Shown here: in pieces, positions 4,826 through 63,625 of the stretch | Layout: each line of letters starts with the position of its first letter | Position numbering within the stretch: position 1 is the stretch's first letter | Source of the DNA: Phycisphaerales bacterium | Lineage (GTDB): Bacteria; Planctomycetota; Phycisphaerae; Sedimentisphaerales; UBA12454 | Reading direction: 5' to 3' | Assembly: GCA_039679715.1 (NCBI GenBank) | Contig: JBDKUM010000239.1 | Span: 32,060 to 96,059 of the forward strand | DNA: 64,000 bases | Notes under the pieces: generated by a model | Seen by the model: only the letters and a program-made list of their open reading frames with translations | What the model was told of the DNA's origin: nothing | Databases searched by the model: none | Translations under genes and position numbers: made by a program

Positions 4826-7800
4826 ATGCAAACGCTTCAAAATATCTTGTCGCAGCAGAATATACAAACCATCGGCTGGACACTAATCAATTTTATTTGG
4901 CAGGGGACTTTAATCGCTTTTCTTCTTGCGATAGTGCTGAAATTTTTGCGCAATAAAACATCTAATACCCGTTATGCAATAGCCTTTTTAGCTTTGGCTA
5001 TAATGATATTTGCCCCGATTTTTACATACAGAATGATCTATCATATTCCTGTTGCCGGTGTTGATTCAGAAAAATTGGCCAATCATCAGGTTCAAATAAT
5101 AGAACCGATGAAGGTTGTTAAATTGGATCTGCCGCAAGATAATATCAAACCCGTCGCACCTGTCAAAAAAACGATTACAGAAAAATTTATTCAGGCAACA
5201 GAAACCTTTTTGCCGCACATCGTTTTATGCTGGCTTGTGGGCGTGATAATTTTAAGCGTATGGCATCTGGGCGGCTGGATGCAATTGCAAAAATTGAGAA
5301 AGCAGATGATTTCGCCTGTTGCAGATGAAATAAAAAACAAACTTCTGCATTTGTCAAAAATCCTCGGCATAAATAAAGCTGTAAATATTTTCCAATCTGT
5401 ATTGGTAAACGTTCCTGCCGTTATTGGCCATTTCAAGCCTGTTATTCTGCTTCCCGCAAGTGCGCTTACAGGTTTAAGCAGCCGGCAAATAGATGCGATT
5501 TTAGCGCACGAGCTTGCGCATATAAAGCGATGTGATTATTTAATTAATATTTTGCAAACAGTCGTGGAGATTCTTGGCTTTTATCATCCGGCCGTGTGGT
5601 GGGTATCAAACAAAATCAGGCAGGAAAGAGAAAATTGCTGCGACGATATCGCTGTCCAAATCACCGGCGATGAAATCAGTTATGCTCATGCGCTCACAAC
5701 TATGGAAGAAATTCGATTTTTAGCCACAGAGAACACAGAGACCACAGAGGATATAAATAATAAAAAACTTGCCGTCGCGGCATCGGGCGGAAATTTATTT
5801 CAGCGAATCAAAAGGCTGGTCACAAAAAATTCTCACGAAAACGAAAAAGCCGGCTGGCTGCCGTCAGCGATTACGTTCGTATTGATCGCCGCTTTGTTGA
5901 TTCCTATGAGTTTAACTTTGATTAGCTGCAACCAGGAAAAAATTGTACAGCATGAAATGAACCAAAAGCTTAGCAAACTTGATATCGATACGGCAACTAG
6001 AGAAGATGTGATAAAAGTCTTCGGCGAACCTGAAAAATATATGTGGGGTAATGAAAAAGTCGGAACATTCCAGTATTACCAAAAAGATAATCTTCCCGAT
6101 AAATACGTTATGTTTTATCCGAATGATTTTCGAATATTCATTGCTAATAATCAAATTGTGGAATTCCGCTTTGAGGGGCAAAGTGATTATGTTTTTGATG
6201 GCGAATTGGTCGTAGGATCTTCGCTGGAAAAGGTGATCAAAGTACTTGGCGAACCGAACGAAATTCTTGATGGAGAAAAAATTGAATTTAAGGATAACGT
6301 TCTTTATAAGAACATACAGGATAAACCCAAAGGAATCGGCTATTACGCTGTCCCCCAAAAACATGTCAGGATCTGGCTGAACAATGATGAAGTCAGGGCG
6401 ATATACGTCACGCGCAGCGATTATAGCGATGGAGGGCCTTTCAACAAAAAATTGAAAGACAGCGAATTGCCCAAAGGCAGTACAATCGATGCAAAAGGCC
6501 ATATCGTGGACAAAATCGACTACCCATTTGTTAACGACCCGGAAGTGCTCGGCGGCTGGGAAGCTGTAGATTTTGTAAATGATATTAATAATTTTAAACC
6601 AGGCAAAAGATCATGGGATGGAGATTTGTTCTTAAAAGAATTGTTCTTTTTGGATGAAGGTAAAACAAATTGGGCATTTTCATGGACGAAAGGATTGCTG
6701 CTTCACAGCGGAGATAAGACCGCTTCGAAATATATCATTAAAGAAATAAACGGCTCAAAATATATGTTTATGGAATGGAAAAGCGGAGATTACACAATCC
6801 GCCACATGAAGCCAAGTTATTATGTTCTTAAAAAAGTTGAAGATAGTAACGTTGCTGAAGTTCCGCCGCATCCTACCCGGCCTAAAGAGCCGCCTCCTCC
6901 GCCAAGACCCTATGATCCGCCAACAAGAGAAATGGTAGTGTACGAAGTAAATAAAAGCGTAAGTGATTTCCCTGCTGACGATTTTTCAACACCGCAGGCT
7001 GCTTATGCTGCAATAAACAAAGTCTCAGCAAACGGCGATTCAGACGGCTGGCAAAGAGTGAGCGTAAAGAAACTTGCACAAAGTTTGGCCGCAGAAAAGA
7101 AAAATGGCAAAATGAAAACTGATCCCGAATGGTCGCAGGTTCTTTTGAATGCTAAAATCAATGAAGTAAGAATATGGAACAATAAAAAAGCGATTGTAAT
7201 GGCCGAACTGCCCCAAAGTTTTTGCAGCAAAAAAATAAAAGCGCCTATCGACGTTCGCTGGCTTGAATTTGAAAATAATAAATGGCTCAACAGCGGCAAT
7301 GACCGAACCTGGACAATCGAAGAAGCAAGAGCTAAATTTGATAATAGCTTCAATGATAACACGCAAGAGCCTGATAGAACCAATCAGCAAAAAATAAGTG
7401 ATGAGAAATTAAATAAGATTTTTAATAAACCTGATGAAGTCATTGTACAAGCAAAAGAGCTTTTTGAAAAAATTAAAAATGCGGACTATGTGAAATTTCT
7501 GAATTATTATAATGATGGCCAATGGAAAGCGGATGAATGGCAAAAATGGCCTACAATAGGTTATTACATGGTACATACTGCTTATCCTGATTTTGTACTT
7601 TGGACATGCAGAACTTTTAAAGATAATCCCATTGTTAATGTTGAACTTGGTGAGGTATATAAGGGAGATCGAATTATCATTGGAAAAACGGGATGGCCGA
7701 CCGTGCCTTATAAAATTACGTTAAAGGATGGAAGTTTTATTCAGGGAGATTTGCCTTTTGAATACAATTTTGATGGCGGAAAAGGTCATTGGCATGGCAT

Positions 7801-16676: not shown

Positions 16677-16752
16677 TGGGTGAGAGACGGGGTTCGAACC
16701 CGCGACCCTTAGAACCACAATCTAATGCTCTACCAGCTGAGCTACTCCCACC
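16677..16752 (-). tRNA. tRNA-His (anticodon GTG)
   Basis: The reverse complement folds as a cloverleaf: G-1 + GTGGGAG acceptor, GCTC/GAGC D stem, TTAGA-TTGTGGT-TCTAA anticodon arm, GCGGG-TTCGAAC-CCCGT T arm, CTCTCAC + C73. The extra 5' G pairing with C73 is His-specific. Confidence 0.9.
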
Positions 16753-39757: not shown

Positions 39758-39830
<73 letters not shown>

Positions 39831-41608: not shown

Positions 41609-41681
41609 AGGCCAGTAGCTCAATTGGCAGAGCGGCGGTCTCCAAAACCGCAGGTTAGGGGTTCGATTCCTCTCTGGCCTG
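41609..41681 (+). tRNA. tRNA-Trp (anticodon CCA)
   Basis: AGGCCAG acceptor / CTGGCCT, GCTC-AATTGGC-AGAGC D arm, GCGGT-CTCCAAA-ACCGC anticodon arm, and AGGGG-TTCGATT-CCTCT T arm. Confidence 0.9.
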
Positions 41682-56740: not shown

Positions 56741-57251
56741 CGGATTAATAAAGTTCTGGTATAACTCTCGATTCCTTGGCCGTAGCGAGCGTTCTGGACA
56801 CAGGATGCGTTTCGAGTTGGGCTGATACGATAGCGTATCACTACTATCAAAAGATAGTAAACTTCTGGTTAGCTTCGCAGTAGCGAAAAGATTTCAGTTG
56901 AATACCACTGGTATTTTTTAATATCGCGTCTGATGAGCCGTAAGTCATTGAGCCAGCTTCGCTAAGCCACTAATTAAGGGCGCAGTTATTTAATGCCGTT
57001 GGTATAAGCCTTTTTTATACAAAAATCAATAAACTGACGGAATTTGCGGCCTTAAAGACAGCAATATTGAAAAAGAGACGATTATAGGACTATAAAGTCT
57101 TTTTTGTGTAAAAAAATGTATCGTTTTTAAGAAAAAAGCGAATTTTCAATATTATTATAGTTGATTTTGGGAAATAAAACAGTATGCTCTTATGTTTTCG
57201 CCTCTGAACGGCGTAGGCGAAACGCAAAATTGTAGCATAGGACATTGTAAG

Positions 57252-60242: not shown

Positions 60243-60527
60243 ATGGCTCGTTCATTAAAAAAAGGACCGTTTGTTGACGCAAAACTTTTGCAAAAAGTTA
60301 TGAAGCAGATTCAGACTGGTGTTAAAGACCCTATAAAGACCTGGTCAAGAAGAAGTACAATCGTGCCGGAATTTGTAGGTTATACGTTCATGGTTCATAA
60401 CGGAAAGATGTTTAATAAAGTATTCGTAACAGAAGAAATGGTCGGCCACAAGTTAGGCGAATTTTCAATAACTCGAGTATTCAGAGGTCATTCGGGTGTT
60501 AAATCAGCCGCGGCCGCTGCTGAATAA
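60243..60527 (+). CDS. rpsS: 30S ribosomal protein S19
   Basis: [19 protein letters not shown], and [28 protein letters not shown]. Confidence 0.96.
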
Positions 60528-60536
60528 GGTGGAACA

Positions 60537-61088
60537 ATGTTAAGCGCAAAAAAGCTTGATAATTTAATTAAGTCTTCGGGCACAAACGTAACAGATCTTG
60601 CCGAGAAAATTGCTCGTACAGGACTGGAAAAGAAACAGGCGGCAACAGCATTGAAGAACTGGCGCAAAGGTTTGAATAGCCCGATTGCAAGAAAAGCGGA
60701 TATCGACGCGATCTCCAATGCATTAGGTGTTGAAACCACAGCAATTTCTGAATGGAAATGTACTGTGAAGTATGCACCGTCAACTCCGAGAAAAGCCGGG
60801 CTTGTTACCAAATTAATTGCCGGTAGAAATGCACAGGAAGCTCTGGATTTGCTCAAGTTCACTCATAAAAGAGCATCTTATATGGTTGACAAAGCATTGA
60901 AGAGCGCAATTGCCAACGCAGATGAAGATTCAGCTGATGTTGAAAGCCTTTATGTCAGCGAAGCCAGAGTTGACGGAGCTGGTATAAGAGTTGGAACAAA
61001 AAGATTTATTGCCAAAGACAGAGGCAGAGCACATAGTTTACAAAAATTAGCTAGTCACATTCATATTACCGTGACAGAAGCAAAATAA
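60537..61088 (+). CDS. rplV: 50S ribosomal protein L22 with an N-terminal HTH-like extension of about 75 aa
   Basis: The L22 core starts near residue 73 (KYAPSTPRKAGLVTKLIAGRNAQEALDLLKF...KSAIANA...GRAHSLQKLASHIHITV). The ATG at 60537 lies 5 nt after a strong AAGGTGG RBS and 9 nt after the rpsS stop. The extension is in frame with no stop. Confidence 0.85.
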   Translation: MLSAKKLDNLIKSSGTNVTDLAEKIARTGLEKKQAATALKNWRKGLNSPIARKADIDAISNALGVETTAISEWKCTVKYAPSTPRKAGLVTKLIAGRNAQEALDLLKFTHKRASYMVDKALKSAIANADEDSADVESLYVSEARVDGAGIRVGTKRFIAKDRGRAHSLQKLASHIHITVTEAK

Positions 61089-61102: not shown

Positions 61103-61909
61103 ATGGGTCAAAAAGTACAGCCAGTTGGTTTTAGAACAGGCATCAGGTTGCCTTGGCAGAGCACATGGTTTGCTCCAAAAGCAAGTTACGGGCAGATGCT
61201 GGTTGAAGACGAACGAATCCGAAAATATGTAGATGATAAATTTAACAAGCAGCCTCCATTCGCTGCGGTTTCAAAGGTTGAAATCGCAAGGACGAGAAAT
61301 GAAGTGAAAGTAACGCTTCATACTGCAAGGCCGGGCATGGTGATCGGACCAAGAGGCGCTGAAGTAGATAAATTAAGACAAGACCTTGAACAGTTGATTG
61401 ACAGACAGGTAACTGTCAATGTTATGGAAATAAGAGAACCGTCTTTAGACGCAAGGCTTGCCGCTGAAGCGATTGCAGAACAGATGAAGAAAAGAGTCGC
61501 GTTCCGCAGAGCTATGAAACAGCAGACAGAGCTTTCAATGCAGGCAGGCGCAAAAGGCGTTAAAATTATTTGCTCGGGTCGTCTTGGCGGAGCTGAAATG
61601 GCACGCAAAGAAACCCAGATGGAAGGCAGTATTCCTCTTCATACTATAGATGCCGATGTCGATTACGCATCAGTTGGTGCTATTACGACTTACGGTGTTA
61701 TTGGTATAAAGGTTTGGATTTATAAAGGGAAATTCGGCGCACAGGTTGAAGAACAAGGCGCAGAGGCTCCAAAGAAAACACTGCACAGACCAAGAGCAGC
61801 AAGAAGAATGGAACGTAATGCAGGCCCAAGACGTGAAAGTCAGCCGCATGCCGCACCAGCAAAGCCGGGTGAAACAGCACCAGGTCAGGAACAAACAAAA
61901 AAAGAATAA
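61103..61909 (+). CDS. rpsC: 30S ribosomal protein S3 with a low-complexity C-terminal extension
   Basis: MGQKVQPVGFRTGI, KH domain, and GRLGGAEMARKETQMEGSIPLHTIDADVDY. About 45 extra Pro/Ala/Glu-rich residues at the C-terminal end. Confidence 0.95.
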   Translation: MGQKVQPVGFRTGIRLPWQSTWFAPKASYGQMLVEDERIRKYVDDKFNKQPPFAAVSKVEIARTRNEVKVTLHTARPGMVIGPRGAEVDKLRQDLEQLIDRQVTVNVMEIREPSLDARLAAEAIAEQMKKRVAFRRAMKQQTELSMQAGAKGVKIICSGRLGGAEMARKETQMEGSIPLHTIDADVDYASVGAITTYGVIGIKVWIYKGKFGAQVEEQGAEAPKKTLHRPRAARRMERNAGPRRESQPHAAPAKPGETAPGQEQTKKE

Positions 61910-62903: not shown

Positions 62904-63293
62904 TTGATTCAGCAAAGAACAATGATAGATATAGCCGATAACTCCGGTGTTCGCAGAGCACAATGTGTTAATGTGCTTGGACGAAGTGCGGCCAGTACCG
63001 GAAAATACAGACGCTGTACCGCATCGGTAGGCGACACGATTTGTGTAGCGTTAAAGAAGTATCTGCCCACCTGTCAATTGGACAGGAAAAAGGTTTACAG
63101 ATGCATAGTAATCAGGACAAAGAGACCAATCCGCAGACCTGATGGAAGTTATGTTCGATTCGACAGCAATGCGGCAGTAATTATCGATGCAGACGGCAAT
63201 CCAATCGGGACAAGAATTTTCGGCGCAGTTGCGAGAGAATTAAGAGAAAAAAATCAGATGAAAATCGTATCTCTGGCGAGCGAGGTCGTCTAA
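62904..63293 (+). CDS. rplN: 50S ribosomal protein L14 (TTG start)
   Basis: MIQQRTMIDIADNSGVRRAQCV..., RRPDGSYVRFDSNAAVII, IGTRIFGAVARELR. A small insertion relative to E. coli near residues 27-40. Confidence 0.93.
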   Translation: MIQQRTMIDIADNSGVRRAQCVNVLGRSAASTGKYRRCTASVGDTICVALKKYLPTCQLDRKKVYRCIVIRTKRPIRRPDGSYVRFDSNAAVIIDADGNPIGTRIFGAVARELREKNQMKIVSLASEVV

Positions 63294-63625
63294 TGGCAAA
63301 GAATGTAAAAAAAGGTGATATGGTTGAAATCATAGCCGGCGCAAGTAAAGGTACAACCGCTAAGGTAATGAAAGTAATACCATCAAAAGATAGAGTAATT
63401 GTTGAAGGCATCAACAGAAGATTTAAACATGTAAAGCCGTCACGCAAATATCCGCAGGGCGGAAGAATTCAGGTTGAAGAACCTATTCATATCAGCAATG
63501 TTCTTCCGGTCGATCCGAAAAGCTCTGCTGGTACGAGAGTAAGATTCGTAACCGACAGCAAAGGTGTAAAAAAACGTGTTTCTGTTGGTGGTTCTGAAAT
63601 TGGAATTTTAAGAAAAGCAAAATAA
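63293..63625 (+). CDS. rplX: 50S ribosomal protein L24
   Basis: KKGDMVEIIAGASKGTTAKVMKV (KOW) and operon position. Its start overlaps the rplN stop (TAATG). Confidence 0.93.
   Translation: MAKNVKKGDMVEIIAGASKGTTAKVMKVIPSKDRVIVEGINRRFKHVKPSRKYPQGGRIQVEEPIHISNVLPVDPKSSAGTRVRFVTDSKGVKKRVSVGGSEIGILRKAK

Follow-up and report, generated by a model that had tools for sequence, protein, structure and literature searches.

An N-terminal domain related to XRE/Cro-C1 helix-turn-helix regulators on ribosomal protein uL22 of Phycisphaerae

Results

The uL22 gene and its neighborhood

The window analyzed in this work is a stretch of 64,000 nucleotides from a Phycisphaerales bacterium. Its ribosomal protein genes follow the order of an ordinary S10/spc cluster (S10-L3-L4-L23-L2-S19-L22-S3-L16-L29-S17-L14-L24), and within the S10 operon the gene for ribosomal protein uL22 is flanked by rpsS and rpsC (Table 1). 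The S19-L22-S3 order is also found in locus L081, from a divergent lineage described below. The uL22 open reading frame (60537 to 61088, forward strand) is free of stops and encodes 183 amino acids. The first-pass annotation of this DNA had described a 183-aa reading frame that starts with an ATG at 60537, 9 nt from the rpsS stop; the sequence bears this out, and the peptide quoted there is exact.

Table 1. Features of the uL22 locus and tRNA genes of the window. Positions are those of the window; residues are those of the long uL22.
Feature	Position	Strand	Remarks
rpsS (ribosomal protein S19)	60243-60527	+	Upstream gene; TAA stop at 60525-60527
Shine-Dalgarno-like AAGGTGG	60526-60532	+	4 nt between the last G and the ATG
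ATG start of the long (183-aa) uL22	60537-60539	+	9 nt past the rpsS stop
N-terminal XRE/Cro-C1-type five-helix domain (predicted), residues 1-70	60537-60746	+	AlphaFold2, Foldseek, hhalign, Pfam on orthologues, dN/dS
Helix 1, residues 4-14	60546-60578	+	AlphaFold2
Helix 2, residues 18-25	60588-60611	+	AlphaFold2
Enlarged turn and N-terminally lengthened helix 3, residues 26-35 (ARTGLEKKQA)	60612-60641	+	hhalign, column conservation
Helix 3, residues 32-43	60630-60665	+	AlphaFold2
Best-conserved patch, residues 40-55 (K/R40, N41, W42, K44, G45, L46, P49, P51, R52, D55)	60654-60701	+	Column conservation
Helix 4, residues 53-63	60693-60725	+	AlphaFold2
Helix 5, residues 67-70	60735-60746	+	AlphaFold2
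uL22 core, residues 71-183, and stop codon	60747-61088	+	Pfam match at residues 77-179 (60765-61073)
Trp73 at the domain/L22 junction	60753-60755	+	Invariant among orthologues
Internal GTG, codon 77	60765-60767	+	Alternative start named earlier; unconserved
rpsC (ribosomal protein S3)	61103-61909	+	Downstream gene
tRNA gene	16679-16751	-	Rfam
tRNA gene	39758-39830	+	Rfam
tRNA gene	41609-41681	+	Rfam

Two other features of the cluster deserve mention. The gap that separates the end of fusA (56740) from rpsJ in the window (56741-57250) consists of about 450-500 nt of AT-rich, non-coding sequence and lacks tuf. An Rfam scan of the window matched the three tRNA genes alone and found no rRNA, known riboswitch or leader, and the gap itself had no Rfam match; it may be an uncharacterised leader or promoter region of the S10 operon. 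In the S3 protein (268 aa), encoded downstream of uL22, the last 45 residues or so (…APKKTLHRPRAARRMERNAGPRRESQPHAAPAKPGETAPGQEQTKKE) form a low-complexity tail with many Pro, Ala, Lys, Arg and Glu residues. It is possibly another lineage-specific extension of a ribosomal protein.

A complete L22 core follows 70 added residues

The L22 core was recognized in the second part of the protein. The Pfam family Ribosomal_L22 (PF00237) matched residues 77-179 with an E-value of 1.5e-24 and a score of 86.6 bits (cut-off, 28), and TIGR01044 (rplV_bact) matched residues 78-179 with 82.5 bits, above its equivalog cut-off of 73.65. When solved bacterial L22 chains from the PDB were aligned with the query, their own residues 2-8 fell on residues 70-78. 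The AlphaFold2 model of the core has the alpha/beta fold of L22 with its long beta-hairpin: Foldseek comparison with solved L22 chains yielded E-values around 1e-9 and TM scores, computed against the target, of 0.85-0.90 over some 113 aligned columns. The pLDDT of the model is lower in the hairpin region (residues 150-170). An L22 core that begins late in the reading frame had been noticed in the first reading of the sequence, and all these searches agree with it. As L22 is complete from about residue 71, residues 1-70 are an addition, and no solved L22 chain covered them in either the PDB sequence search or the Foldseek search.

In the model, the added domain is joined to L22 without a linker. 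Helix 5 leads straight into a beta-strand formed by residues 73-79, which is beta-strand 1 of L22.

The added residues are predicted to form an XRE-type five-helix domain

AlphaFold2, run on an alignment of 29 sequences, gave the full-length protein a mean pLDDT of 81.5, with values of 83-88 across residues 1-70. The extension was thus predicted with confidence as a domain of five helices (Table 1), and the same fold was obtained when the domain was modelled alone. Because a Foldseek search with the full-length model matched the L22 core alone, the domain was searched separately. The top 50 matches in the PDB were all lambda-repressor-like, with TM scores of 0.6-0.73 over 67-76 columns and probabilities of 0.9-1.0. 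They include a LexA-annotated XRE protein, CapH, SinR, P22 c2, C.BclI, the 434 and lambda repressors, DdrO, and the N-terminal domains of HppE and HEPD. The E-values were modest (0.02-0.2) because the domain is small.

Profile comparisons pointed in the same direction. When an alignment of the N-terminal domain (A2) was compared by hhalign with an alignment of HTH_3 repeats (A3), the probability was 97.8% and the E-value 7e-13 over 58 columns; the 13 repeats of A3 all score as HTH_3, with the caveat that they were chosen among matches to the A2 profile. Some orthologues are recognized by Pfam directly: P0343 (26.9 bits) and P0346 (29.6 bits) exceed the HTH_3 cut-off of 23, and P0256 (28.6 bits) exceeds the HTH_31 cut-off of 27. 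The window's own domain stays under every Pfam HTH threshold (HTH_26, 13.1 with a cut-off of 22; P22_Cro, 13.6 with a cut-off of 30.2), and Pfam and NCBIfam scans of residues 1-76 produced sub-threshold matches alone (P22_Cro, HTH_26, carph-isopro, Pil1 and DarG). Therefore, its assignment to the XRE type relies on profiles, orthologues and fold.

A profile search against 1.84 billion representative sequences returned 75 matches, mostly the N-termini of L22 proteins. The remaining matches were ordinary proteins with tandem XRE repeats and one stand-alone regulator, P0184, encoded in a phage-like early region. Two giant proteins of unusual architecture, made of tandem helix-turn-helix units, were also found: in P0129 (1927 aa), HEAT-like repeats come after no fewer than 13 HTH_3 repeats of the XRE type, and P0158 (1312 aa) has about 15 Cro-like units with the motif ELA..LGVS..TI..WL.

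Other assignments were considered. The best matches of a PDB sequence profile search (XPH1/Cro), which align with residues 52-75 alone, would place the helix-turn-helix at helices 4-5; the alignments of the full domain obtained with hhalign and Foldseek were preferred. Matches of the extension to the N-terminal domain of TniQ (E around 0.1) were discarded as too weak. Judged by sequence profiles and by the predicted fold, residues 1-70 are a diverged member of the XRE/Cro-C1 superfamily, and the XRE-type character claimed for the extension in the first-pass annotation stands.

The extension is translated and subject to purifying selection

The window carries a GTG at codon 77, and some public annotations of related L22 proteins are short (P0077, 114 aa; P0118, 120 aa; P0319, 122 aa; P0384, 108 aa). 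Both facts would suit the view that the extension is an annotation artefact, translation beginning near codon 77 (GTG 60765) and the 228 nt upstream being an untranslated or vestigial in-frame leader. The first-pass annotation had itself named this GTG as an alternative start. When related loci were compared, the following observations were made:

(i). Each of the 80 related loci fetched has the extension in frame with L22 and, with the exception of a locus cut by the end of its contig, a reading frame of 182-183 aa. An ATG was found at the aligned position of the motif MLS in 79 of the 80 loci, so that the start codon and the motif are almost invariant, which argues against the artefact. The sole shifted start occurs in a single-cell genome (L056, 2498-2503), where the codon at the M of MLS is ATT and an ATG lies one codon upstream.

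(ii). The GTG at 60765 is not a conserved start. Of 81 sequences, 52 have TAT or TAC at codon 77, and no more than 2 have a codon there that could act as a start. A conserved internal start is absent, and none of codons 53-84 could serve as a start in more than 31% of the sequences. Shine-Dalgarno-like matches of at least 4 nt precede the conserved ATG in 41 of 81 sequences and codon 77 in 17 of 81.

(iii). The median dN/dS was 0.20 for the N-terminal domain and 0.10 for the core, as calculated from the 114 sequence pairs with unsaturated synonymous change. The value of 0.20 speaks against a mere leader, as does the confident prediction of a fold.

(iv). The loci of two of the short-annotated records, L001 (2501-3052) and L002 (2501-3049), hold a full in-frame reading frame of 182-183 aa with the N-terminal domain. 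Hence, P0077 and P0118 are start-codon mis-calls. A systematic mis-call of this kind seems to affect P0319, P0384 and P0351 (146 aa) as well.

On these sequence comparisons, the artefact explanation is effectively refuted. In-frame retention in every locus, conservation at the protein level and the low dN/dS place the extension far beyond chance, and show, as far as comparative evidence can, that it is translated, maintained by purifying selection and functional.

The fusion is found throughout the sampled Phycisphaerae

In a search that covered 5.8 billion proteins, 692 relatives were recovered. Among the 120 matches listed, 118 were 181-199 aa long and covered 88-100% of the query, mostly 99%; the nearest relative of the window L22 among them belongs to Planctomycetes bacterium GWF2_42_9, with 90% identity. 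When one genome per GTDB species was scanned, the N-terminal domain was detected in at least 177 species genomes. The named matches are attributed to Phycisphaerae, Phycisphaerales, Sedimentisphaerales or Anaerohalosphaeraceae, or carry unspecific labels ("Planctomycetes bacterium" or "Planctomycetota bacterium"); both Anaerohalosphaeraceae and Sedimentisphaerales fall within the class Phycisphaerae.

Two more divergent branches were also found. Both have the same architecture with the variant motif RNWM.GRDHPRCK: one is typified by P0160 (181-187 aa) and the other by P0150 (177-181 aa), whose gene is likewise located between rpsS and rpsC. The extension, which the first reading had left as a feature of a single genome to be compared with its relatives, is thus lineage-wide. 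All carriers of the fusion appear consistent with Phycisphaerae and, as far as the class has been sampled, the fusion seems to extend to the whole of it.

A spread into another class, Planctomycetia, was considered on account of metagenome-assembled genomes (MAGs) labelled as uncultured Pirellulales or Planctomycetaceae. The L22 proteins of these MAGs are 68-98% identical to L22 proteins labelled as Sedimentisphaerales or Phycisphaerae, and the labels therefore provide no evidence for another class.

Two additional observations concern individual genomes. In L081, which represents the P0150 lineage, the L24 protein (6756-7250) reaches 164 aa, with KOW and ribosomal_L24 matches, and thus makes a second exit-site protein with an extension in this branch; its counterpart in the window (63293-63625) has 110 aa. 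In addition, two contigs of one MAG (SRP068000_co1_139), CAYNKI010000112.1 (L029) and CAYNKI010000302.1 (L065), each contain a gene for L22 with the helix-turn-helix domain, an indication that the bin is mixed or contaminated and that the gene is not truly duplicated.

The domain departs from canonical helix-turn-helix geometry

The first-pass annotation had attributed to the extension the helix-turn-helix spacing of Cro/C1 domains. The spacing is in fact not the canonical one. Compared with HTH_3 by hhalign, the domain has three extra residues after helix 2, four at the start of helix 3 and two after helix 3; the first seven are inserted within the helix-turn-helix, between LAEKI and ATALKNW. 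In the AlphaFold2 model, the canonical succession of helix 2, short turn and helix 3 is replaced by a 6-residue loop, which includes R27 and G29, and a helix 3 of 12 residues.

Conservation was examined in 80 sequences. Residues A38, N41, W42, K44, G45, L46, D55 and W73 are invariant, and L2, S3, K6, L21, A22, R27, G29, A35, P49, P51, L59, A60 and L63 are almost so. Where helix 3 begins, residues 32-37 are variable, save for the near-invariant Ala35. The mean net charge of the N-terminal domain is +5.2. The window copy is atypical: residue 51 (60687-60689) is Ala, compared with Pro in 79 of the 80 sequences; residue 47 (60675-60677) is Asn in place of the usual Phe, Met or Tyr; and residue 60 (60714-60716) is Ser, compared with Ala in 77 of the 80.

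Judged by the complexes of the 434 and lambda repressors, the start of helix 3 (32-37) is the place where XRE repressors read bases, and the best-conserved patch overlaps the region with which classical repressors touch the DNA backbone. The domain thus has a conserved, basic surface of the backbone-binding type, whereas its reading residues vary and its turn is rebuilt, a pattern that fits a fixed, structured partner better than a conserved operator.

This pattern bears on the idea that L22, either free or bound to the ribosome, might moonlight as a DNA-binding regulator or tether, autoregulating ribosomal protein operons or linking ribosomes to the nucleoid. The ancestry of the domain is compatible with such an activity, as it is homologous to sequence-specific DNA-binding repressors and P0184, the stand-alone protein closest to it, is a regulator of phage type; the domain is also basic, and its conserved patch overlaps a DNA-backbone-contacting region. 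However, seven residues interrupt the helix-turn-helix, the putative base-reading positions vary among orthologues, which would be unexpected for a conserved operator, and a dimerisation element is not evident. In the window sequence, a search for operator-like palindromes upstream of rpsJ disclosed weak AT-rich inverted repeats alone, none of them convincing. Access to DNA would also be restricted by the zero-length linker to a strand embedded in rRNA. Altogether, we consider a DNA-binding role of this kind quite unlikely.

Discussion

The fusion described above raises the question of what an XRE-type domain may be doing on L22, a protein with roles in lining the exit tunnel and in nucleating the assembly of the 50S subunit. 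The reading that we favor, with a probability of roughly 0.6, is that the domain is a permanent module of the 50S surface near the tunnel exit, where it would contact rRNA or a neighboring protein or factor. The proposed history is simple. An ordinary XRE/Cro-C1 helix-turn-helix regulator would have given rise to the five-helix domain, which a single fusion event would have placed at the N-terminus of L22 and which would then have been kept throughout Phycisphaerae. Such an event would amount to the repurposing of an operator-reading repressor as a permanent ribosomal accessory module.

Position is the main element of this proposal. As the domain passes without a linker into beta-strand 1 of L22, it would have to enter the 50S subunit together with L22. 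Residues H7, R8 and R11 of Escherichia coli uL22 are located where uL22 meets 23S rRNA (bioRxiv 10.1101/2022.04.20.488877). In our alignment, M1 of E. coli uL22 corresponds approximately to residue 71, and the counterparts of H7, R8 and R11 are residues 77, 78 and 81, so that a few residues separate the attachment point of the added domain from rRNA-contacting positions. The domain would lie on the solvent face, beside the globular part of L22, with 23S rRNA and the rim of the tunnel exit nearby. There, the basic patch (K6, R27, K/R40, N41, K44 and R52) may grip the rRNA backbone, or else a neighboring protein or factor, and the outcome could be either an aid to assembly or stability of the 50S subunit or the shaping of a docking surface near the exit. 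What points to contact with rRNA is the zero-length linker together with the charge of the domain; no structure of a Planctomycetota ribosome was among the matches of our PDB searches. We thus infer, rather than observe, the presence and position of the domain on the ribosome, its preference for RNA over DNA as a partner, and its role.

A related possibility is that the domain sits on the ribosome as a docking platform whose partner is a protein and not rRNA. In such a case, it would create or alter a binding site at the tunnel exit, and the client of this site would be a factor that acts on nascent chains (deformylase, a chaperone, or the machinery for targeting or membrane insertion) or one that acts in hibernation or assembly. 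The location lends itself to this function: the globular part of uL22 is surface-exposed and forms, together with bL32 and rRNA, the groove by the tunnel exit in which the C-terminal helix of peptide deformylase docks (bioRxiv 10.1101/2022.04.20.488877). In addition, domains with the XRE fold that serve in non-DNA roles exist among the structural matches (the N-terminal domains of HppE and HEPD), and the invariant exposed residues N41, W42, K44, G45 and L46 would suit a protein interface as well as an RNA one. Against a protein partner, a mean net charge of +5 and an attachment point near rRNA-contacting residues both favor nucleic acid, and neither the window nor L081 shows a candidate partner gene linked to the locus. 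We therefore regard a dedicated protein-docking platform as unlikely, albeit an explanation with some merit.

Binding of the helix-turn-helix to nucleic acid beyond the ribosome's own rRNA is, in our opinion, doubtful to the point of being a long shot. Were it to occur, its consequences would be far-reaching. Every 50S subunit of Phycisphaerae, or every free L22, would bear a DNA- or mRNA-binding head, and that head would either tie ribosomes physically to the chromosome or to particular transcripts, or permit L22 to autoregulate ribosomal protein operons. Transcription and translation would then be coupled in a new way, and this in a class of bacteria already known for the unusual organisation of its cells.

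Under the favored reading of a permanent 50S module, the significance of the fusion is of another kind. A transcription-factor fold carried by L22 and kept under selection across a class would make the ribosomes of Phycisphaerae structurally distinct. Since the surface of uL22 is part of the docking site of deformylase, the domain may alter nascent-chain processing. The L22-XRE fusion would also provide a clean synapomorphy. A practical consequence is that the annotation of L22 in Phycisphaerae needs a fix, because several public records drop the domain.

Comparison with known systems

To our knowledge, core ribosomal proteins of bacteria rarely acquire whole folded domains. Our literature searches found no paper on an L22-helix-turn-helix fusion, and the class-wide fusion is apparently an undescribed case of lineage-specific appendage on a ribosomal protein. 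Its resemblances to known proteins and its differences from them are outlined below.

The protein encoded in the window does not differ from bacterial uL22 (PF00237/TIGR01044) in its core, which is complete, scores above the family cut-offs, has the fold of the solved chains and is encoded at the usual place between rpsS and rpsC. The difference lies in a folded N-terminal domain of 70 residues. Other uL22 proteins with a core plus a lineage-specific appendage belong to the same general kind. Examples are the C-terminal tail of the mycobacterial protein, the N-terminal extensions of about 20-25 aa in Deinococcus and Bacteroidota, chloroplast uL22c, mitochondrial uL22m, and the NCBIfam family NF008917 ("L22/unknown domain fusion"). 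In contrast with what is seen here, the L22 part of NF008917 is N-terminal (positions 13-109 of 311), and its extra domain is therefore C-terminal. None of the other solved uL22 chains with extensions aligns with residues 1-70 of the protein studied here.

With XRE/Cro-C1 domains (HTH_3, PF01381; HTH_31, PF13560; SinR, P22 c2, the 434 repressor, CapH and C.BclI), the L22 domain shares the predicted five-helix fold, homology at the profile level and the signature W-x-x-G ... P ... L..IA.ALGV. It differs from them in its 3 + 4 + 2 extra residues and in the variability of the positions that would read bases. A further difference is the nature of the partner domain, a ribosomal protein instead of an oligomerisation or sensor domain.

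The closest functional precedent is MBF1/EDF1, of archaea and eukaryotes. The helix-turn-helix of EDF1/Mbf1, which belongs to the Cro/C1 type, is clamped between helices h33 and h16 of 18S rRNA (PMC7486125; bioRxiv 10.1101/2020.10.31.363135), and provides an example of an XRE-type helix-turn-helix that contacts rRNA helices on the ribosome. The likeness with the L22 domain is at the superfamily level, and Pfam found no match to the MBF1 family in the uL22 reading frame. Architecture differs as well: MBF1 is a stand-alone protein with an MBF1/zinc-ribbon N-terminal domain and a C-terminal helix-turn-helix, whereas the helix-turn-helix is N-terminal and fused to L22 in Phycisphaerae. MBF1/EDF1 is also a separate factor, transiently recruited to the 40S or 30S subunit near the mRNA entry, while the domain described here is a covalent part of a 50S protein located near the exit. 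Bacteria, as far as we know, lack MBF1. If the favored reading is correct, the L22 domain of Phycisphaerae would be a bacterial case of an XRE-type helix-turn-helix recruited to the ribosome, in parallel to MBF1/EDF1.
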